DNA of 47,095 nucleotides from an uncultured Clostridia bacterium (lineage in GTDB: Bacteria > Bacillota > Clostridia > TANB77 > CAG-508), in the NCBI GenBank assembly GCA_944388665.1, contig CALXJQ010000003.1:1-47095 (forward strand), in the 5' to 3' direction. Below are positions 517 through 42,175 of the stretch, piece after piece. Numbering within the stretch: the stretch's first letter is position 1; each line of letters begins with the position of its first letter. The notes beneath the pieces were generated by a model, which was not told where the DNA came from, ran no database searches, and worked only from the letters and a program-made list of their open reading frames with translations. A program made the position numbers and the translations under genes.

Positions 517-1560
517 TTATTTATCTTTAGGAATTTTATCAAATTCTTCTATCATTTTATCTACTGCTTTGTTCTCTACAAATTTTTCTGCCTGTATTAT
601 AGTGTATTCAAATAACAGTGCATCACTGCTTCCATGTGCTTTTACTACTGGCTTTTTTACCCCTAAGAATAGTGCTCCGCCATAAGATTTGTAATCCATT
701 TTTTTACTAAATCTCTTTATTGCTGGCAAAGCAGGAACTGCAAGTATTTTGCTAAGTAGGTTTTTAGTCAAGCTTTCTGTTAATGTTCTCTTAACAAATT
801 TACCTAATCCTTCTGTAGTTTTTAAAAATACATTTCCTGTAAAACCATCTGTTACTATAGCATCAATTTTACCTGAAAAAGCATCTCTACCTTCTACATT
901 TCCTACAAAGTTGATATTTAACTTCTCAGCTTTTTCTTTTAACAAATTATAGCTTTCTCGTACTAATTCGTTCCCTTTAGTTTCCTCTGTACCAATATTT
1001 AACAACCCTATCGCAGGATTTTCTATTCCAAAAGTATTTTTTAGATATATGCTAGACATTTGTGCAAATTGCAATAAATTTATAGGTTTGCAATTAGTGT
1101 TTGAGCCAGCATCAATCAATAGCAGTTGGCTCTTATATGCCGGCAATATACCTGCTAAAGCAGGCCTATCTATCCCTTTTATTCTGCCTACTATCAAAGT
1201 TGCGCCAGTTAACAATGCACCTGAATTACCTGCAGAAATGAAAACATCTCCCTGGCCTTCTTTTAACATTCTAAAGCCCACTACCATAGATGAATCTTTT
1301 TTATGCTTTATAGCAACTGTAGGAGTATCTTCCATTTCTATTGTTTCTGTTGCATTTTGTATTTTTAATCTATCTGAAATTTCTTCTATTTCTTTTCCAT
1401 AAAATTCTTTTATTTTGCTTCTTATTACATCTTCTTTGCCTACTAATACTACTTCTGCCTTTACTTTATTTATGCTATTTACAGCACCTTTTATATTGGC
1501 ATCTGGGGCATTATCTCCACCCATCGCATCTAATATGATTTTCACTTTTGATTCCTCCAA
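517..1560 (-). CDS. plsX: Phosphate acyltransferase PlsX
   Basis: LDAMGGDNAP, SAGNSGA, DGFTGNVFLK and KAHGSS motifs; adjacent to acpP. Confidence 0.97.
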   Translation of the reverse strand: MEESKVKIILDAMGGDNAPDANIKGAVNSINKVKAEVVLVGKEDVIRSKIKEFYGKEIEEISDRLKIQNATETIEMEDTPTVAIKHKKDSSMVVGFRMLKEGQGDVFISAGNSGALLTGATLIVGRIKGIDRPALAGILPAYKSQLLLIDAGSNTNCKPINLLQFAQMSSIYLKNTFGIENPAIGLLNIGTEETKGNELVRESYNLLKEKAEKLNINFVGNVEGRDAFSGKIDAIVTDGFTGNVFLKTTEGLGKFVKRTLTESLTKNLLSKILAVPALPAIKRFSKKMDYKSYGGALFLGVKKPVVKAHGSSDALLFEYTIIQAEKFVENKAVDKMIEEFDKIPKDK

Positions 1561-1632
1561 ATCGTACTTATTTCATTATATCGTTAACAGTAATATTTTA
1601 TTATTGTTTTTAGAAAAAAGCAAGTCTTTTTT

Positions 1633-2715
1633 TTAATCCACATATATTTTTTCATCTTTATCATTGATATAGTAATATTTATTTTCATAATAATCATACT
1701 GCAATTTTCCTCTTTTATCATTATCAGATAAATCCAAGTTAAATTCTTTTGGTATGACTTTATTTATTCCTAGCAAAACTGAAAATGCTAAATAATCTTC
1801 CCATAAATATACTTCTATAGCTTTTCTATTTTCAATCAAAGAATATTCTTTCAAGTATTCTTCTAGCCTTTTTAGTTTATCTCTATATTGAATGGCTGTA
1901 CCTGTATACACGTGCGCTTTAGTAAATTTAATATATTCTGCTATTGCAATAATAAAAAATATTACTGACTCTGCAACAATTGTATTCCACATAATATATG
2001 GAAAAATTTCTCCTAAAACATATAGCTGAACACAGTATATAACAATGCATAAAATGAATTCTATAATTATACTTTTACGCTCGTCTTTTGAACTATATTT
2101 CATCATTTCGTCATGAATTAATTTATTTTTTAGAGCCTTTAATAAATCCTTTGAATAATTAATGCCTTTCATATTCAAAAACAGAAGTATTGTTATAGCG
2201 ACCATTAACAGAATAACTATAACAGGACTTATAAATGTCCACAATATAGGTATTAATAATATAGCCAAGAATTCTAGTGCTCTGAAAAAATACTTTCTCT
2301 TTTGCTTAAACTTTTTTGAATCTATTAACTTATCTGCCATCGCCTCTTGAATTATTAGTTCTTTTATGTTCTTTTTATGTGTGGCAATTATATTATTCTC
2401 AGATACTCTCAATTCATTTAATGTTAGTCTACCATCACCATCTGAGTCCATAATTTTTAGGCACTCATATATAAATGTTTCTGATATGCGCAATTTTTTT
2501 GTTCCATTTTTTATGTTTATAACAAGTTCATTTTCATTTGTTTTATTAAGCTCCACGTAACCTTTTTTGTGCAACCTTAAAATGGTACTTATAATGATTC
2601 TATTCAAAACATTTTTTTCCAAAATATCATCATAATAAAGTAAAGCACTTTCGCCCATACTAAAATTTTCATCTATATCATTTCGATTATATTTTTTTTC
2701 CATAATCTCCCCCAA
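1633..2715 (-). CDS. Membrane protein, possibly DUF2207-like
   Basis: About 4 hydrophobic segments; C-terminal LWEDYLAFSVLLG resembles the DUF2207 tail (recognised by eye). Confidence 0.6.
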   Translation of the reverse strand: MGEIMEKKYNRNDIDENFSMGESALLYYDDILEKNVLNRIIISTILRLHKKGYVELNKTNENELVINIKNGTKKLRISETFIYECLKIMDSDGDGRLTLNELRVSENNIIATHKKNIKELIIQEAMADKLIDSKKFKQKRKYFFRALEFLAILLIPILWTFISPVIVILLMVAITILLFLNMKGINYSKDLLKALKNKLIHDEMMKYSSKDERKSIIIEFILCIVIYCVQLYVLGEIFPYIMWNTIVAESVIFFIIAIAEYIKFTKAHVYTGTAIQYRDKLKRLEEYLKEYSLIENRKAIEVYLWEDYLAFSVLLGINKVIPKEFNLDLSDNDKRGKLQYDYYENKYYYINDKDEKIYVD

Positions 2716-11171: not shown

Positions 11172-11187
11172 ATTCATCTCTCCTTTT

Positions 11188-11214
11188 GAACTTTAAGGAA
11201 CGTCCCCAAAGTTC
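11188..11214. repeat. REP-like palindrome class A
   Basis: GAACTTTAAGGAACGTCCCCAAAGTTC; 7 near-identical copies in the window. Confidence 0.95.
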
Positions 11215-11220
11215 AATCTA

Positions 11221-19418: not shown

Positions 19419-19440
19419 TAGCTAAAACTTATAATTTTTT

Positions 19441-19500
19441 GAACTTTGGGGACGTTCCTTAAAGTTCAAGGTGTTTTTTTCCTCCGTCCCCAAAAACATC
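19441..19500. repeat. REP-like composite, class A (19441-19467) + class B (19470-19500)
   Basis: GAACTTTGGGGACGTTCCTTAAAGTTC-aa-GGTGTTTTTTTCCTCCGTCCCCAAAAACATC. Confidence 0.95.
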
Positions 19501-20561: not shown

Positions 20562-22373
20562 TTAATTCTCATTGAAAATTGCTTCAAATTCATCTGCCTC
20601 AATTTTTTCTTTCTCCAAAAGAACTCCTGCAACAGCATGTAGTTTATCTATATGCTCTGATAATATCTGCTTTGCTCTATTGTATCCTTTGTCTACAATT
20701 GCTTTTGTTTCTTCATCAATTATAGCTGCAGTTTCTTCTGAATATTCCTGAGCCTGTGCAAAGTCTCTACCTAAAAATACTTCTTCTTGATTCGTTCCAA
20801 GTGTTATTGTTCCAATTCTATCACTCATTCCATATTTTGTAACCATGCTTCTAGCAATTTTAGTTGCTCTCTCTATGTCATTACTTGCGCCTGTAGAAAC
20901 ATCGTGTAATACTAAACTTTCAGCAACTCTACCGCCAAGAAGTGAAACTATATTTTCTTCCATTTCAGTTTTTGACATAAATGACTTATCTTCAGTTGGC
21001 CTATACATTGTATATCCTCCTGCCATGCCTCTAGGCACTATAGATATTTGATGTACCGGATCTTGTGTTGTTAAGAAATGACTTACTACTGCGTGACCAG
21101 CTTCGTGATATGCAACAAGCTTGTTTTCTTTTTCACTTCTTACTTTTGTCTTCTTTTCTGGTCCCATAGTTACTTTTACCATAGCTTCTTCGATTTCTTG
21201 CATTGTAATTTCCCTTGTATTTTTCCTTGCAGCTAAAAGAGCAGCTTCATTTAATACATTTTCCAAATCAGCTCCAGAAAATCCTGACGTATTTTTAGCT
21301 ATTACTTTCAAATCAACATCATCTGCTAATATTTTCTTTTTAGCATGTACTTCTAGTATTTGCTCTCTTGCCTTTACATCTGGCATTCCTATTACAATTT
21401 GTCTATCAAACCTACCAGCTCTTAATAATGCTTTGTCTAAAACATCAGGCCTATTTGTTGCAGCAAGCACAATAACCCCTTCATTTTCAGCAAATCCATC
21501 CATTTCAACTAGCAATTGGTTCAAAGTTTGCTCTCTTTCATCATGGCCTCCACCTAAGCCTGCGCCTCTTTGACGTCCTACTGCATCAATTTCATCTATA
21601 AATATAATACATGGTGCATTCTTTTTAGCTTGGTCAAACAAATCTCTAACACGTGAAGCACCCACACCAACGAACATTTCTACAAAGTCAGATCCACTTA
21701 TTATAAAAAATGGTACTCCCGCTTCTCCAGCAACAGCTTTTGCCAATAAAGTTTTACCTGTACCTGGTTGACCAACTAGCAAAACGCCCTTTGGAATTCT
21801 TGCTCCCATATCTGTATATTTCTTTGGATTTTTCAAGAAATCTACAATTTCTTCTAATTCTTCTTTTTCTTCATCAACGCCAGCGACATCATCAAATGTT
21901 ATCTTATTTTTCTCAGCAGGTGTCATCATTCTTGCCTTGCTTTTACCAAAAGACATTGTCTTGTTACCAGCATTTCCACCGCTAGCGCCACCCATCATTA
22001 AGAACCAGAAAATAAAGAATATTAACAATAGTCCAAATGGTGTAAGAAGTGTAAGCACTGTTACAAATATTGACTGTGATCTTTCTTCAAGTGTAAATGC
22101 GCCATCTTTTATAAATTCTTCGCAATAACTCATAAAGCTTCCCATATCTGGTATATTTACCTCTTTTGTTATTCTATCATCTTTTAATTGTACTTCTGCT
22201 GATGTGCCATCTGCATTAATCTCTACAGACTCAACCTTGCCCTCATTTATATTAGTAATTAATTCTGAATATTTTAATTTTGAGTCGCTATTTTCTACAA
22301 TTGATGACAATACTACTAAAAATATTACAGCTATTATTAGCCACATCGCTAAAGTTTTAATTCCATTTTTCAA
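20562..22373 (-). CDS. ftsH: ATP-dependent zinc metalloprotease FtsH
   Basis: 2 transmembrane helices, [28 protein letters not shown]. Confidence 0.98.
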
Positions 22374-22567: not shown

Positions 22568-23704
22568 TTACAGCATTGAGGTAAAAAAAATTTTTTTGTC
22601 CTTTACCAAAATTTTTATATTTTTATTTGGAGTCAAATACTTATTTCCAATATTATTTTTACATAACCTTATAATATCCTCCACATTTATTAGACCAATT
22701 GAGTCACTACTACCAATTATATTTGTTATAGTATATAATATAATCCTTGATTTTATTACATTTTTTTGAAGATTAAATTCTTTTAAGTCTAATACAATTT
22801 CTTTTATTTTTTCATCATTTATAGGATCCTTAATTACCCTCAAAAGCATATTTCCGTAGGCTTCTCTCACTTGTTCATCAATATAATTTTGCTCATCACT
22901 AGCCAACTTCGAAAGCCTATCAAAAGTATCAATAATATTTGGGTTAAACTCTTTTTTAATATATGGAATAACTATATTTCGTATCTTATTTCTAGTATAC
23001 TCATTCTCAAAATTAGTTTTATCAATCCTTGGGTTCAAACCATGCTCTTCACAATATCTCTCAATCTCCTGCCTATCACATTCAATCAAAGGCCTAATAT
23101 ATTTGCCTCTCTTAGGTTCAATACCTATCAATCCATTAACTCCACAACCTCTAAACAAATGCATAATTATCGTTTCAACCTTATCATTCTTATTATGTGC
23201 AATAGCAATCTTATTCGCGCCAGTCTCCTTCAAAACCTCATCAAAAAATTCATATCTTGCTTTTCTTCCTGCTTCTTCCACTCCTATCTTCTTATTATTA
23301 GCCAAACTCATCACATCTATGCTTTTCGCATAAAACTTTATGCCATTTTTCTCGCAATACTCCTTAACATACTGCTCATCATCCTTTGCTTCTTCCCTAA
23401 TAAGGTGATTTACGTGAGCCACCACCAAAAAATTTGCCAAGAGGGACGTAGCGTTTTGGCAATTTTTTGCCACTGGGGACGTACCTTTTTGGCAATTTTT
23501 TGCCATTTTGCTACGTCCCTCTTGGCAATTTGTGAAAATAAAATTGTTTTCTTTTTGAAGCTTTAATAAAATGTCCAGCATGCACATTGAATCTGGACCA
23601 CCTGAAACTCCAAGTACAATTTTATCTCCTGGATTTATTAAGTTAAACTTTCTAATAGTATTAGCAACTTTATCTTTTAATGTTATTTTTTGGCAATCAT
23701 GCAT
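22568..23704 (-). CDS. tilS: tRNA(Ile)-lysidine synthetase carrying an in-frame REP-derived insertion
   Basis: SGGPDS PP-loop, AHVNH, ARY, AHNKNDKVET, RPL, RNKIR; upstream of ftsH; start is ATG 23704 or GTG 23713. Confidence 0.95.
   Translation of the reverse strand: MHDCQKITLKDKVANTIRKFNLINPGDKIVLGVSGGPDSMCMLDILLKLQKENNFIFTNCQEGRSKMAKNCQKGTSPVAKNCQNATSLLANFLVVAHVNHLIREEAKDDEQYVKEYCEKNGIKFYAKSIDVMSLANNKKIGVEEAGRKARYEFFDEVLKETGANKIAIAHNKNDKVETIIMHLFRGCGVNGLIGIEPKRGKYIRPLIECDRQEIERYCEEHGLNPRIDKTNFENEYTRNKIRNIVIPYIKKEFNPNIIDTFDRLSKLASDEQNYIDEQVREAYGNMLLRVIKDPINDEKIKEIVLDLKEFNLQKNVIKSRIILYTITNIIGSSDSIGLINVEDIIRLCKNNIGNKYLTPNKNIKILVKDKKIFFTSML
23430..23531. repeat. REP-like class C trimer inside tilS
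   Basis: Three TTGCCA...TGGCAA hairpins at a 33-bp period, each with a GGGACGT core (third one inverted). Confidence 0.95.
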
Positions 23705-23709
23705 AACTA

Positions 23710-24106
23710 TCACCCTTTCTTATCTAATTGCCTCAAAGTTTCTCTGCTTACACCTATTACACTTTCTATTTCTCTATATGAAACACCATAAGTAACTTTC
23801 AATGTATGCACTACTTCTTTTAGTTTTTCTCTGTTTCCCCTTTTTGAAGCTAAAATAGGCGAAATTCCTTGTTCATTCAATTTGTCAATAATTAAATTTC
23901 TGTTATCAGCTTTTTTATCAGTCTTCTCCTCCAAAAATGCGAATTCATTATTTTCTTCTGCATCGCACTCTTTCAAATTGGCACCTTCTATGATTCGTCC
24001 AACACTTTGGTATAATCTTGTTCTATCCGCTCCATACATTTTGGTAAAACTAGAATATTAGATGAAAAAATAGGGATATATTATTGTTTCTTGCTCTTCT
24101 TGTAAT
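23710..24106 (-). pseudogene. Internally deleted REP-associated tyrosine transposase (RAYT/TnpA-REP, Y1 HUH family) remnant
   Basis: Frame 24106-24050 reads ITRRARNNNISLFFHLIF* (like the RAYT N-terminus M.R.AR...FFH). A different frame from 24057 reads YSSFTKMYG... ending in an HTH-like GVSYREIESVIGVSRETL. The HUH and catalytic Tyr/NPV segment is absent. Class C repeats lie on both sides. Confidence 0.7.
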
Positions 24107-24347: not shown

Positions 24348-24420
24348 AAAAATTTGCCAAGAGGGACGTAGCTTAATGGCAAAAAATTGCCAAAAAGCTA
24401 CGTCCCTGGTGGCAAATTTT
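24348..24420. repeat. REP-like class C inverted doublet
   Basis: TTTGCCAAGAGGGACGTAGCTTAATGGCAAA + TTGCCAAAAAGCTACGTCCCTGGTGGCAAA. Confidence 0.93.
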
Positions 24421-24639: not shown

Positions 24640-24712
24640 AAATTTTGCCATCAAGGGCGTTCATCTTGGGCAAAGCCTTGACAAAAATGAGATGTCTCTG
24701 CTGGCAAAATTT
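24640..24712. repeat. Degenerate class C doublet
   Basis: AAATTTTGCCA...TGGCAAAATTT outer arms with decayed cores (AGGGCGTT, GATGTCTC). Confidence 0.7.
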
Positions 24713-24718
24713 AAAAAT

Positions 24719-24795
24719 GAACTTTAAGGAACGTCCCCAAAGTTCACGAAGAATGTTTTTGAGATGTTTTTTTCCTCCGTCCCCAAAAACACCTC
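24719..24795. repeat. REP-like class A (24719-24745) + class B (24761-24795)
   Basis: GAACTTTAAGGAACGTCCCCAAAGTTC and GAGATGTTTTTTTCCTCCGTCCCCAAAAACACCTC. Confidence 0.95.
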
Positions 24796-24803
24796 ACGGA
24801 TTT

Positions 24804-26138
24804 TTAGTCATCGAATCGTTTTTCGAGGTTTACAAATTTTGTATAGCTTCCAAGCCACAATAGTTCTACTGTGCCAGTTGAGCCACCTCTATGCTTTGCT
24901 AATATAACTTCTGCTATATCCTTTTTTTCACTATCTGGGTTGTAGTAATCATCTCTATACAGAAACATTACAATGTCTGCATCTTGCTCTATGGCGCCAG
25001 ATTCACGTAAGTCTGAAAGCATTGGTCTGTGGTCTGGTCTTTGCTCTACGGCTCTTGACAGCTGTGATACTGCAATTACAGGGACGTTAATTTCTTTGGC
25101 CAATATTTTTAATGACCTACTAATTTCTGAAATTTCTTGTTCACGGCTACCATTTCTTCTATTCGTTCCTTGTATTAATTGCAAATAGTCGATTATAACC
25201 ATACCAATATTTTTTTCAAGTTTCAATTTTCTACATTTAGCGCGGATTTCTGTTACTGAAATTCCTGGCGTATCATCAATGTATATTTCTGACTCTGAAA
25301 GAGGTCCTATTGCTGAAGCGAGCTTAGCCCAGTCGCCTTCTTCTAGTTTTCCTGTTCTCACTTTGTTGCTATCGACCATTGCTTCACTACACAAAATTCT
25401 GTTTACAAGTTGCTCTTTTGACATTTCCAAGCTAAAAATTGCCACAGGCACTTTGGCTCTAACTGCGGCATTTGTAGCAATGTTCAATGCAAAAGCTGTT
25501 TTTCCCATAGCAGGTCTGGCAGCTACCAGTATTAAATCTGATGGATGAAATCCCGCTGTTTTATAATCTAATTCAGTAAATCCTGTTGGAACGCCAGTAA
25601 TATACTGCTTACGATTATATAATTCCTCTAGCTTGGTAAAACTATCAACCAAAACATCCTTTATCGGAGCATATCCCTTCTGATCTTTATCCTGCATTAT
25701 GTTAAAAATTTTCTTTTCAGAGCTTTCCATAATTTCATCAACATCTTCTGTTGGGTCATATCCCAATTCGATAATTTCATTTGCAGTTTTTATCAAATTT
25801 CTTAATGTTGATTTTTCTTTAACAATCTTAATATATTTTGATGCATTAGCCGTAGTTGGCACTTTATCTGGCAACGAAACTATGTACTCCAAGCCACCAA
25901 CTTGTTCGAATTTTCCCATTGACTCTAATTCAGCTTTAACAGTTATTATATCTATCGGTTCTGCTCTATTATACAAATTGTATATTGCTGAATATATAAT
26001 TCTATTATCTTCGCGATAAAAATCTTCTTCTTTTAGGACTTCAATCGCTGAAGTTACAGCATCTTTATCTGTAAGCATACTACCTATTATTGCTTGTTCT
26101 GCTTCAGTATCATGTGGCGGTACTTTTCCTAGCTCCAT
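24804..26138 (-). CDS. dnaB: Replicative DNA helicase (DnaB; DnaC in Bacillus nomenclature)
   Basis: PPHDTEAEQA, AARPAMGKT, IDYLQL, SQLSR, DLRESGAIEQDAD. Confidence 0.98.
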   Translation of the reverse strand: MELGKVPPHDTEAEQAIIGSMLTDKDAVTSAIEVLKEEDFYREDNRIIYSAIYNLYNRAEPIDIITVKAELESMGKFEQVGGLEYIVSLPDKVPTTANASKYIKIVKEKSTLRNLIKTANEIIELGYDPTEDVDEIMESSEKKIFNIMQDKDQKGYAPIKDVLVDSFTKLEELYNRKQYITGVPTGFTELDYKTAGFHPSDLILVAARPAMGKTAFALNIATNAAVRAKVPVAIFSLEMSKEQLVNRILCSEAMVDSNKVRTGKLEEGDWAKLASAIGPLSESEIYIDDTPGISVTEIRAKCRKLKLEKNIGMVIIDYLQLIQGTNRRNGSREQEISEISRSLKILAKEINVPVIAVSQLSRAVEQRPDHRPMLSDLRESGAIEQDADIVMFLYRDDYYNPDSEKKDIAEVILAKHRGGSTGTVELLWLGSYTKFVNLEKRFDD

Positions 26139-36926: not shown

Positions 36927-37188
36927 TGAATTCTCGGTTCATTATCCTCATCAAGAACTTCTAAATCAATTTTGTGGCTCCCTTCCAAAAACAAGTTTTT
37001 GAACTCTTTCCACAAAATTGATAAAGAAGTTCTAAGTGAGTCTAATTCACATTCGAACATATTCCTAAAATAATTACATATATCATCAATAAAATTCTTA
37101 TAAATAGAAAAAACGGTGAGCTTTAAAGAACATTTCAAAAGTTTATTTTTTATTAATAATAGCAAAGATAATATGATAAATAATTTTT

Positions 37189-37215
37189 GAACTTTAAAGA
37201 ACGTCCCCAAAGTTC
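37189..37215. repeat. REP-like class A
   Basis: GAACTTTAAAGAACGTCCCCAAAGTTC. Confidence 0.93.
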
Positions 37216-37264
37216 ACTAAAAAAATATGCTCTAAATGCTGAAAAATAAAGGAAAAATGAAGAT

Positions 37265-37291
37265 GAACTTTAAGGAACGTCCCTAAAGTTC
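37265..37291. repeat. REP-like class A overlapping the stop codon of the AI-2E gene
   Basis: GAACTTTAAGGAACGTCCCTAAAGTTC. Confidence 0.93.
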
Positions 37292-38411
37292 ATTTTTTTG
37301 AAAGTTTATATTCAACGTAATCTTCGACTAGTATTTTTATAACTGCAATTGCTGGAACTGCCAAAAACATGCCAAGTATGCCAAAGTATGCACCGCCAAC
37401 TGTTACAGCAAAGATTACTAATAGTGGGCTTATTTTTAATGATTGGCCAATTATTTTTGGATTGATTATGTTTGCATCTATTTGTTGCAAAATTATTACT
37501 ACAATAATCATCCAAATTGTTTTGCTTAATCCACCTGTAATTAATGTGATAATTGCAGCTATTACGCACGCTATAATTGCGCCGAAATATGGAATCATGT
37601 TAAATATTCCTATTAAAAATCCTAGTAATGGAGCATATTTAACTTGCATTATTGTCAATGCGATTGTTACCAAAATGCCTACTATTACTGCATCTAAAAA
37701 CTGACTAGCTATAAATTTGAAAAATATTTCATTTGAATTGTCAAAGTACTTGTCTAAATTTTTATATGTTCTTTCTTTGAAAAGTGCCTCTGACAATCTT
37801 TTTAAGAATCTTATTATTTTTGATCTTTCTGCTAATATGTATACAGAAACAACAACTGCAACAAATATATCAAATAGACTTGTAACAGCTGATATTGCAT
37901 TTTCAATATATGACAATACCTTATCTACTTGGAAATATTGCTTAATATCTATCCCCTGTATGCTTTTTATGGCATCATTGACTATGTCTCCTTTTAGCCA
38001 AGAATTTTCTGGTAAATCGTTATATTTTTGTATTGCTAGTTCAAAATAGTGTTGAATGTTATTAACTAGGTCTGTTATACTTTCAGCCACAACAGGTATG
38101 ATAAAGTTCATCAAAATTAGTATTATTAAAAATATTATTAAATAAACAGCAAAAATTCCAAGGGCCCTAGCTCTTTTTGAGATAAATTTTAATTTACATT
38201 TTTTGAAGGCTCCTTCAAATTTTCTACATGGCAAATATAGCAAATATGCTATAAACACTCCTGAAAAGAATGGTGCCATTATTTCAAAGAACTTAGTCAC
38301 CACGTTTTTCACACCACTAAAGTCCCCTAGTGCTTTATATACAACTATTACAGCTACAGCTAGTACAAACCAATATAGCCACTTTTTCCAATGACTTTTT
38401 ATTTCACTCAT
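37290..38411 (-). CDS. AI-2E family (PerM-like) transporter
   Basis: Multiple transmembrane helices; NMIPYFGA, QQIDANIINPKIIG, GILGMFLAVP. Confidence 0.92.
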   Translation of the reverse strand: MSEIKSHWKKWLYWFVLAVAVIVVYKALGDFSGVKNVVTKFFEIMAPFFSGVFIAYLLYLPCRKFEGAFKKCKLKFISKRARALGIFAVYLIIFLIILILMNFIIPVVAESITDLVNNIQHYFELAIQKYNDLPENSWLKGDIVNDAIKSIQGIDIKQYFQVDKVLSYIENAISAVTSLFDIFVAVVVSVYILAERSKIIRFLKRLSEALFKERTYKNLDKYFDNSNEIFFKFIASQFLDAVIVGILVTIALTIMQVKYAPLLGFLIGIFNMIPYFGAIIACVIAAIITLITGGLSKTIWMIIVVIILQQIDANIINPKIIGQSLKISPLLVIFAVTVGGAYFGILGMFLAVPAIAVIKILVEDYVEYKLSKK

Positions 38412-39200: not shown

Positions 39201-39300
39201 GAACTTTGGGGACGTTCCTTTTTGGCACAAAAAAGATGTTTTTTTCCTCCGTCCCCAAAAACACCCAAAAAATGAACTTTAAGGAACGTCCCTAAAGTTC
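39201..39300. repeat. REP cluster: A/C chimera (39201-39227), class B (39234-39264), class A (39274-39300)
   Basis: GAACTTTGGGGACGTTCCTTTTTGGCA; AGATGTTTTTTTCCTCCGTCCCCAAAAACAC; GAACTTTAAGGAACGTCCCTAAAGTTC. Confidence 0.93.
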
Positions 39301-39313
39301 ATTTGTGCACATT

Positions 39314-42081: not shown

Positions 42082-42175
42082 ACTTGATGTTTGAGGGATG
42101 TTTTTGGGGACGGTGTTTTTGGGGACGGAGGAAAAAAACATCTTTGTTGCCATCAGGGACGTACCTTTTTGGCAA
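42079..42175. repeat. REP cluster: class A stub, duplicated partial B, class B (42112-42142), class C (42147-42175)
   Basis: TGAACTT; GATGTTTTTGGGGAC; GGTGTTTTTGGGGACGGAGGAAAAAAACATC; TTGCCATCAGGGACGTACCTTTTTGGCAA. Confidence 0.93.

Follow-up and report, generated by a model that had tools for sequence, protein, structure and literature searches.

Here, we describe an array of a short palindromic repeat that is read in frame inside tilS, the gene for tRNA-Ile lysidine synthetase, in a 47,095-nucleotide stretch of DNA (the window; contig CALXJQ010000003.1 of assembly GCA_944388665.1) from an uncultured Clostridia bacterium of the CAG-508 lineage found in the chicken gut. The array comprises three 33-nt units and is very probably a real and tolerated in-frame repeat. 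Further, we consider it probable that the array is the downstream arm of a decayed REPtron, i.e. of a gene for a REP-associated tyrosine transposase (RAYT) bracketed by inverted copies of its own repetitive extragenic palindromic (REP) sequence, and that it is tolerated as a surface loop of TilS. Going beyond the explanation offered by a sequence-only reading of the same stretch, the most likely reason for the choice of tilS appears, from the gene order, to be that a RAYT-like gene bracketed by copies of this repeat has its place immediately upstream of tilS. The features concerned are the following, in window coordinates.

22568..23713, minus strand: tilS (tRNA-Ile lysidine synthetase), 381 aa; open reading frame (ORF) with PF01171 at 2e-53, the sole copy found in the genome
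23432..23530, minus strand: in-frame trimer of the 33-nt repeat; 99 nt, 33 codons, residues N62-N94
23498-23530, minus strand: trimer unit 1, GGGACGTAGC core, forward
23465-23497, minus strand: trimer unit 2, GGTACGTCCCC core
23432-23464, minus strand: trimer unit 3, GCTACGTCCC core, inverse of unit 1
23710..24039, minus strand: ORF of 109 aa overlapping the tilS start by 4 nt; apparent C-terminal (helix-turn-helix) remnant of a RAYT-like Y1 transposase, catalytic domain gone
24354..24415, no strand: inverted intergenic dimer of the tilS-insert repeat, upstream of the RAYT remnant; probable second arm of the decayed REPtron
24645..24673, no strand: weak, degenerate repeat-like hairpin after the dnaB stop, with one mismatch allowed per arm; relatives have a clean unit there
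24804..26138, minus strand: dnaB, ORF, conserved upstream neighbour
20562..22373, minus strand: ftsH, ORF, conserved downstream neighbour; its N-terminus also follows tilS in relatives

The repeat array within TilS

The array reads, without a stop, NCQEGRSKMAK-NCQKGTSPVAK-NCQNATSLLAN, and each unit has the form TTGCCA-N17-TGGCAA around a GGGACGTA core. Tandem Repeats Finder reported a period of 33, and a repeat search placed three 33-nt copies head-to-tail at 23433-23465, 23466-23498 and 23499-23531, together with a 42-nt inverted pair. The reading frame is preserved because the period is 33 nt, and the cysteines at residues 63, 74 and 85 are evenly spaced because the conserved arm TTGCCA is read as TGC-CAA; nothing points to a function of these three residues. 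Since unit 3 is opposite in orientation to unit 1, the trimer RNA makes one long nested hairpin with a calculated fold of -57.2 kcal/mol (z = -8.3), and 0 of 200 shuffles were equally stable. No Rfam family reached its gathering score anywhere in the window, and the sub-threshold matches on 23380-23580 were to generic long-hairpin (miRNA precursor) models.

The protein around the insert matches PF01171 at 181 bits (gathering cut-off 27), with the SGGPDS PP-loop motif at residues 37-42 and VVAHVNH at 97-103, and this match is broken exactly at the insert, with profile positions 1-31 corresponding to 23531-23623 and 29-181 to 22976-23431. An alignment of 59 sequences has 56 invariant columns, and the protein retains each of them. 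When compared with TilS of G. kaustophilus (3a2k), residues 14-55 correspond to chain positions 3-44 and residues 96-369 to 49-318, and the equivalent linker has 4 residues. The AlphaFold2 model based on the 59-row alignment has a mean predicted local distance difference test score (pLDDT) of 83.9, with values below 50 at residues 62-92, flanked by helix 40-54 and strand 96-102. Searched with Foldseek, the model was closest to 1wy5_A (E 4.5e-22, target-normalised TM 0.81) and also matched the TilS structures 2e21, 3a2k_A and 1ni5. The insert site is the linker between helix alpha1, which follows the SGGPDS loop, and strand beta2, inside the PP-loop domain, and the insert itself is, according to the model, probably a disordered 33-residue excursion of this linker. 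By analogy with Rossmann-type topology, the linker would lie on the side of the domain opposite the PP-loop ATP site. A PF01171 search of the whole draft genome revealed no second TilS-type PP-loop gene, the remaining PP-loop matches being a protein in a 242-aa frame on contig C31 and a sub-threshold match on C2, and to judge from the sequence the tilS with the insert is apparently functional.

Each part of the sequence-only reading of the array survives these comparisons. Three 33-bp units in frame and free of stops are indeed present, although the extent of 102 nt and 34 codons given for them has to be reduced to 99 nt and 33 codons, the difference being one flanking codon. The proposed position between the helix after the SGGPDS loop and the VVAHVNH strand agrees with both the split PF01171 match and AlphaFold, the statement that this linker usually has only a few residues is borne out by the 3a2k chain, and the structure prediction suggested as a check gives a low-confidence loop excursion within an otherwise normal TilS fold. 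Also the view that a unit length divisible by three permits the invasion of coding sequence stands, as the frame is kept and 2-unit and 3-unit alleles exist, and so does that of a tolerated, repeat-born peptide, given that the dispersed repeat is confirmed and the rest of TilS is conserved.

Alleles within the species and support from reads

As a same-species set, we used the 90%-identity cluster of TilS with its 16 members, of which three are fragments without the region and one is not listed. Seven members have three units (P0001, P0121 with 11 contigs, P0122 with 10, P0124 with 7, P0132, P0134 and the partial P0129) and five have two (P0123 with 8 contigs, P0125, P0130, P0131 and P0133). 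The full-length 3-unit forms are 378 aa and the 2-unit forms 367 aa long, while the partial P0129 has 307 aa, and ~45 contigs from public assemblies encode a 2- or 3-unit TilS in frame. The 11 full-length members show no less than 98.5% identity outside the linker; among them, 3 of 33 columns vary within the insert, all in unit 3, compared to 5 of 345 outside it. The 2-/3-unit state is unlinked to an adjacent F/S polymorphism.

The stretch was found in 19 sequencing runs from 10 studies, chiefly of chicken gut. In runs X3 and X5, one Logan contig enters the array from the gene, reaching 23471, and another spans 23502 to the start of the gene, both with 0 mismatches, and in X7 the contigs contain the second junction only (23502 to gene start).

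The repeat family across the genome

The draft genome (G000) has 1,405,889 bases in 97 contigs and a GC content of 30.7%. The exact pattern TTGCCA-N17-TGGCAA has 87 copies in this genome, compared to 0 for a control pattern read backwards, and an nhmmer profile from 79 units, with matches accepted to E 0.05, recovered 126 units in 80 clusters, including 41 singles, 32 dimers and 7 trimers. Inverted pairs account for 30 of the 32 dimers, and 3 of the 80 clusters lie within clear genes, the rest being mostly intergenic. The family is, as REPs and REP doublets forming hairpins (REPINs) are, a short, high-copy and mostly intergenic palindrome that is often paired in inversion. Four to six of the six frames are open in 50 of the 80 clusters. 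The class is characterized by TTGCCA/TGGCAA arms and a GGGACGT core, and the invariant GGGACGTA core holds GTAG and, on the opposite strand, CGTC, both positioned between the arms and not at the end of the palindrome. The CCCGGAAC core of the main subfamily of another genome of the genus (G061) has neither the GTAG nor the CGTC tag. In the flanks of 61 clusters, no motif and no target-site duplication of the kind that MITEs leave was evident, only an A/T run of 4-6 nt. Other ORFs that span repeats are C87:1901, which is of low complexity, and C24:15388; C22:15247, considered as a coding copy, was a false pattern match.

Two additional classes in the genome have the same architecture and a GGGACG core but different arms. 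The second class (TGAACTT...AAGTTCA) is commoner than the tilS class, with 164 pattern matches in the genome, and the third (GGTGTTTT...AAAACACC) has 15. The second class also appears in the form TGAACTTT-N13-AAAGTTCA, of which one frame reads ...NFKERPQSS.

A putative decayed REPtron between dnaB and tilS

The gene order at the locus is rplI-dnaB-[Y1]-tilS-ftsH, and in each of the 15 loci whose flanks extend far enough, dnaB immediately precedes tilS or, where present, the Y1 gene. We searched PF01797 (Y1_Tnp) over 61 genomes and found that a gene of ~250 aa with this domain immediately precedes tilS, in the same orientation, in 5 of 59 genomes (G014, G033, G036, G037 and G061), all five of which have a repeat-derived TilS linker. 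In G061, a unit that precedes the Y1 start by 79 nt matches the reverse complement of the tilS unit exactly (29/29), and near-exact inverse pairs bracket the Y1 gene of G037 and of G014, with a private arm, GTGCCA, shared by the pair in G014. Inverted copies of the own repeat thus flank the Y1 gene in these three genomes, as they do for the two other classes in the genome studied here. Both units are kept in G046, 243 nt apart, with no Y1 gene in between. The Y1 stop is 2-63 nt from the tilS start (G014, G033, G037 and G061) and 187-240 nt from the tilS unit (G061, G037 and G014). The Y1 proteins match PF01797 at 36-44 bits (cut-off 23) and have HUH (H-I/A-H) and YIHxNP motifs, identified by eye. 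NF047646, the NCBIfam model of the REP-associated tyrosine transposase, was the best family for all four full-length Y1 proteins scanned, with E values of 1e-16 to 7e-19, and the IS200 model gave 1e-3 or nothing.

In the window, the order from upstream to downstream is dnaB, the weak hairpin, the repeat dimer, the transposase remnant and tilS with the trimer. In blastp, the 109-aa ORF matched residues 164-244 of the G061 Y1 protein (35% identity, E 1.6e-9) and also those of G033 (E 5e-9) and G037 (E 9e-5), aligning with the C-terminal 80-109 residues of the tilS-adjacent Y1 proteins, and tblastn placed residues 139-244 of the G061 protein at 23725-24057 of the window. Residues 1-138 of the same protein had no significant tblastn match at the locus, and PF01797 had no match on the contig of the window. 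As judged from these alignments, the 109-aa ORF is the C-terminal remnant of a RAYT-like gene and, since it is situated between the repeat dimer and the tilS trimer, the locus would be a decayed REPtron. Two intact Y1 paralogues, on contigs C5 and C34, are flanked by inverted arms of 46 nt and 118 nt, respectively, from the two other repeat classes, and because each of these genes is flanked by another class, three repeat classes match three Y1 loci. The 46-nt arms round the C5 gene (L017 887-932 and 1939-1984) are made by the third class, as GGTGTTTTTGGGGACGG...AAAAACACC, and the 118-nt arms round the C34 gene consist of second-class units.

According to the mechanism that we propose, a RAYT-like HUH-Y1 gene bracketed by inverted copies of its own repeat would have been located between dnaB and tilS and, because its end adjoins the beginning of tilS, the downstream arm would have come to lie at the first permissive place, the TilS linker. 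The insert would be tolerated there because the unit of 33 nt (11 codons) has a stop-free frame and gives a hydrophilic peptide with many Gly, Ser, Pro and Lys residues. In the genome studied here, the transposase would then have lost its catalytic domain, with the 109-aa remnant and both arms persisting, and the arm in tilS would still shift between two and three units, slippage or unequal recombination among them being the probable cause. That the adjacency of the REPtron accounts for the location of the array in tilS is, in our judgement, likely. A wider proposal is that a REPtron arm may persist over speciation-scale times in the coding sequence of an essential neighbour, such that RAYT-type DNA requirements dictate the peptide of the TilS loop, the loop tracks its own subfamily by re-insertion or gene conversion, and the number of units varies even after the transposase has decayed; this we put forward tentatively, with slightly less than even confidence.

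TilS linkers in related genomes

From the genus, 60 genomes were drawn at random, of which 59 had a TilS match and 55 a linker that could be read in frame. Repeat-free linkers were found in 45 of the 55 and measure 21-27 aa from SGGxDS to HxNH, as against 57 aa in the genome studied here and 17 aa in a pair of outgroup genomes, so that, in the alignment of orthologues suggested by the sequence-only reading, the TilS of most relatives has no insert. One or two repeat-derived units are present at the same site in nine (G010, G011, G014, G033, G037, G046, G049, G061 and G067), and G001 has a decayed version of the TilS unit of its sister G014. In G053, the contig (C68, L044) terminates within the tilS array, and such repeats probably explain some of the breaks in draft genomes of the genus. 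The repeat-derived tilS linker of G036 (C9, 99% complete; L077 ~1400-1840, minus strand) contains a stop, with a frameshift near residue 150; either an essential gene has truly become a pseudogene there or the draft consensus is wrong.

The insert follows the repeat load, being present in 7 of the 9 readable genomes with at least 6 exact copies (not in G031 and G055) and in 3 of the 46 with at most 2, a comparison which is descriptive only as related genomes are not independent. In the cases compared (G061, G046 and G014), the TilS unit belongs to the subfamily of its own genome: the G061 unit, which has a TTTAAACCCGGAACC core and reads CHLNPEPLA, is identical (29/29) to a copy on another contig, and those of G046 and G014 each agree at 28/29 positions with a copy elsewhere in the same genome. 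A TilS tree was calculated with the linker removed, by a quick LG+G4 run on 79 rows at 93% identity. No fewer than 14 changes of the repeat label are required on this tree, and well-supported branches force at least 7 of these; the present genome clusters (96*) with four repeat-less rows, and the basal rows are repeat-less as well. The 37:42 repeat-bearing ratio among the 79 rows is not a frequency, since the search ranks matches by the words shared with a repeat-bearing query and thereby inflates the repeat-bearing share, and the random draw from the genus was therefore used instead.

Weighing the alternatives

Outside tilS, coding inserts of the family occur in two further proteins. In RsgA (contig C66; L028:249-1289, minus strand), an in-frame dimer, FCQEGRSEMAKNCQKGTSPVAK, is found in the beta1-beta2 loop of the oligonucleotide-binding (OB) domain, ahead of profile positions 19-52 of RsgA_N, and 13 different N-termini among the RsgA matches listed for the genus have peptides from various repeat subfamilies in the same loop. 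A 2725-aa protein with GH94 and glucoamylase domains (C30; L029:276-8453, plus strand) has one in-frame unit, NCQKGRSKMAK, placed ~40 residues ahead of the PF10091 domain. All three coding inserts of the genome share the hydrophilic frame NCQ...(M/L/V)AK, and this common frame suggests, at the level of sequence, selection on the peptide.

Several observations weigh against our account of the locus. PF01797 had no match on C66 (RsgA) or C30 (GH94), and in-frame repeats do arise without an adjoining RAYT in these two genes, which means that permissive slots exist independently of a neighbouring transposase. The Y1 gene is retained at the tilS locus in only 5 of 59 genomes, and because six genomes with a repeat in TilS have no Y1 gene there (G010, G011, G001 with its decayed unit, G046, G049 and G067), loss of the gene must be assumed. 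The Y1 proteins, at 61-69 bits, are below the curated NF047646 cut-off of 80, and the similarity of the remnant to them is modest (42 bits, 35% over 85 aa, in a six-sequence database). Concerning the insert itself, none of the Logan contigs in X3, X5 and X7 bridges the whole trimer, as expected for repeated DNA, and the only RNA run, metatranscriptome X20, covers 23568-23713 of tilS, outside the insert; the repeat-matching pieces in X20 come from other copies, because they continue into unlike sequence.

In an alternative that we consider unlikely, the neighbouring transposase is irrelevant and repeats insert or persist wherever a surface loop takes 11-residue steps, with the TilS linker, like the beta1-beta2 loop of RsgA, belonging to a small number of such sites and being refilled repeatedly by whichever subfamily is active. 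Apart from the inserts without a Y1 neighbour, such permissive slots would agree with the many label changes on the TilS tree, with the clustering of the present genome with repeat-less rows and with the hydrophilic frame common to three of three coding inserts. However, they leave unexplained why TilS contains a repeat at five of five loci that have a Y1 gene, why the two arms are exact or near-exact inverses with private variants, and why TilS specifically is affected in 7 of 9 repeat-rich genomes.

Improbable, by comparison, is an adaptive element under selection, in which the hairpin located 190 nt into the tilS mRNA, or the Cys peptide, would tune tilS and the downstream ftsH. The stability of the hairpin would fit with such a role, as would the retention of the insert across species in which the genome-wide family is nearly gone (G010, G011 and G001), but the number of units varies within the species, the insert is about six times more variable per column than the rest, the unit has decayed in G001, 45 of 55 linkers of the genus are read without a repeat, the Cys residues are a by-product of the arm sequence, and no Rfam family matches.

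Finally, a mis-assembled repeat, or a tilS pseudogene whose function is supplied from elsewhere, is very improbable, since the Logan contigs ending inside the array, the 97-contig draft with its incomplete tRNA set and the stop and frameshift in G036 stand against ~45 public contigs with two or three units in frame, both junctions recovered from the sequencing runs of two other studies, with a third study giving the right one, an open frame with all invariant residues, the high identity outside the linker and the lack of a second tilS. In the 97-contig draft, ARAGORN found 32 tRNAs, two of which have the anticodon CAT. None was a tRNA-Ile, with whatever anticodon, a tRNA-Ala or a tRNA-Asn, and these gaps presumably reflect rRNA/tRNA operons that were left unassembled. 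Of the conditions under which the sequence-only reading would have fallen, an assembly artefact is largely excluded by the independent assemblies and by the junctions in runs of other studies, and no second intact tilS was found in the genome.

Implications of the locus

The spread of REPs and the retention by RAYTs of repeats on two flanks are still poorly understood. With one flank of the REPtron locked in the frame of an essential gene, any change there must keep the frame, and the locus offers 2- and 3-unit alleles within one species, a truncated transposase in the genome studied here, orthologous copies matching their own subfamily and decayed copies in genomes from which the family has been lost. 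It can, thus, be used as a compact system for asking if the enzyme renews its flanking REPs in cis, and for gauging how much random peptide a PP-loop enzyme tolerates. If an arm does persist over long times in coding sequence, dnaB-RAYT-tilS would report, as a natural system, on the turnover of REPs. When genomes of the genus are annotated, the peptides and N-terminal extensions that repeats add to TilS, RsgA and GH94 proteins are not to be taken as errors.

Other repeat features in the window

Additional units and related repeats of the window, outside the locus described above, are listed below.

42147..42175, no strand: further single copy of the tilS-insert repeat family, by pattern match
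11187-11215, 19440-19468, 24718-24746, 37188-37216, 37264-37292 and 39273-39301: second-class units
42099-42128: 15-nt tandem, TGTTTTTGGGGACGG x2, related to the third class

Comparison with known systems

REP and REPIN-RAYT systems have reportedly been described by Nunvar (2010), Bertels & Rainey (2011) and Ton-Hoang (2012). REPtrons and subclasses of TnpA_REP are described, in the accessible part of that source, by Quentin et al. (2018, PMC6006769), who also mention tnpA_REP genes of subclass 2.4 that have REPs inserted in them. As in REPtrons, the repeat described here is a short palindrome with about a hundred mostly intergenic copies, often in inverted pairs, a low-copy HUH-Y1 gene is bracketed by inverted copies of its own repeat, and several repeat classes exist per genome, each with its own Y1 gene. 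Unlike in REPtrons, one arm appears from the sequence to lie within the coding region of an essential neighbour and to be translated in frame, the GACG/GTAG letters are found mid-unit between the arms and not at one foot, and the host is a low-GC chicken-gut bacterium whose Y1 proteins are under the curated RAYT cut-off.

The precedent for in-frame palindromic elements on which the sequence-only reading had relied is published, as far as the accessible sections of PMC10969869 and PMC3733652 go. Intragenic REPs tagged with GTAG/CGTC and in frame in ORFs are reported there from several phyla (Di Nocera, De Gregorio & Rocco 2013, PMC3733652), and some ORFs are the sole REP-decorated ones in a species. 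Similar to the case described here, these REPs occur in frame as singles, dimers and clusters, encode 20-30 or more residues and leave ORFs that are likely functional, whereas the emphasis in the accessible text is on replication and repair genes. In the accessible text of PMC3733652 and PMC6006769, the word 'Firmicutes' is absent, 'Clostridi' has 0 occurrences in one and 2 in the other, and no link is made between an intragenic REP and a neighbouring RAYT or transposase. A search of the literature for tilS together with repetitive extragenic palindromic sequences found nothing relevant.

Rickettsia palindromic elements (RPE; Ogata et al. 2000 via PMC10969869) are, in the part of that source available, palindromic selfish DNA in frame in housekeeping genes, and like these the tilS repeat adds a peptide segment without destroying the protein. 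However, RPE are ~100-150 bp long and belong to Rickettsia, with no transposase named in the same part of the source, whereas the array described here has a 33-nt unit, varies in copy number within the species and adjoins a cognate transposase-like gene. Membership in the RPE families was rejected on the basis of unit length, and the tilS repeat is RPE-like in action only. In-frame REPs and REPtrons are, thus, both already known, and what is new in relation to the accessible portions of these sources is an arm inside an essential neighbouring gene.

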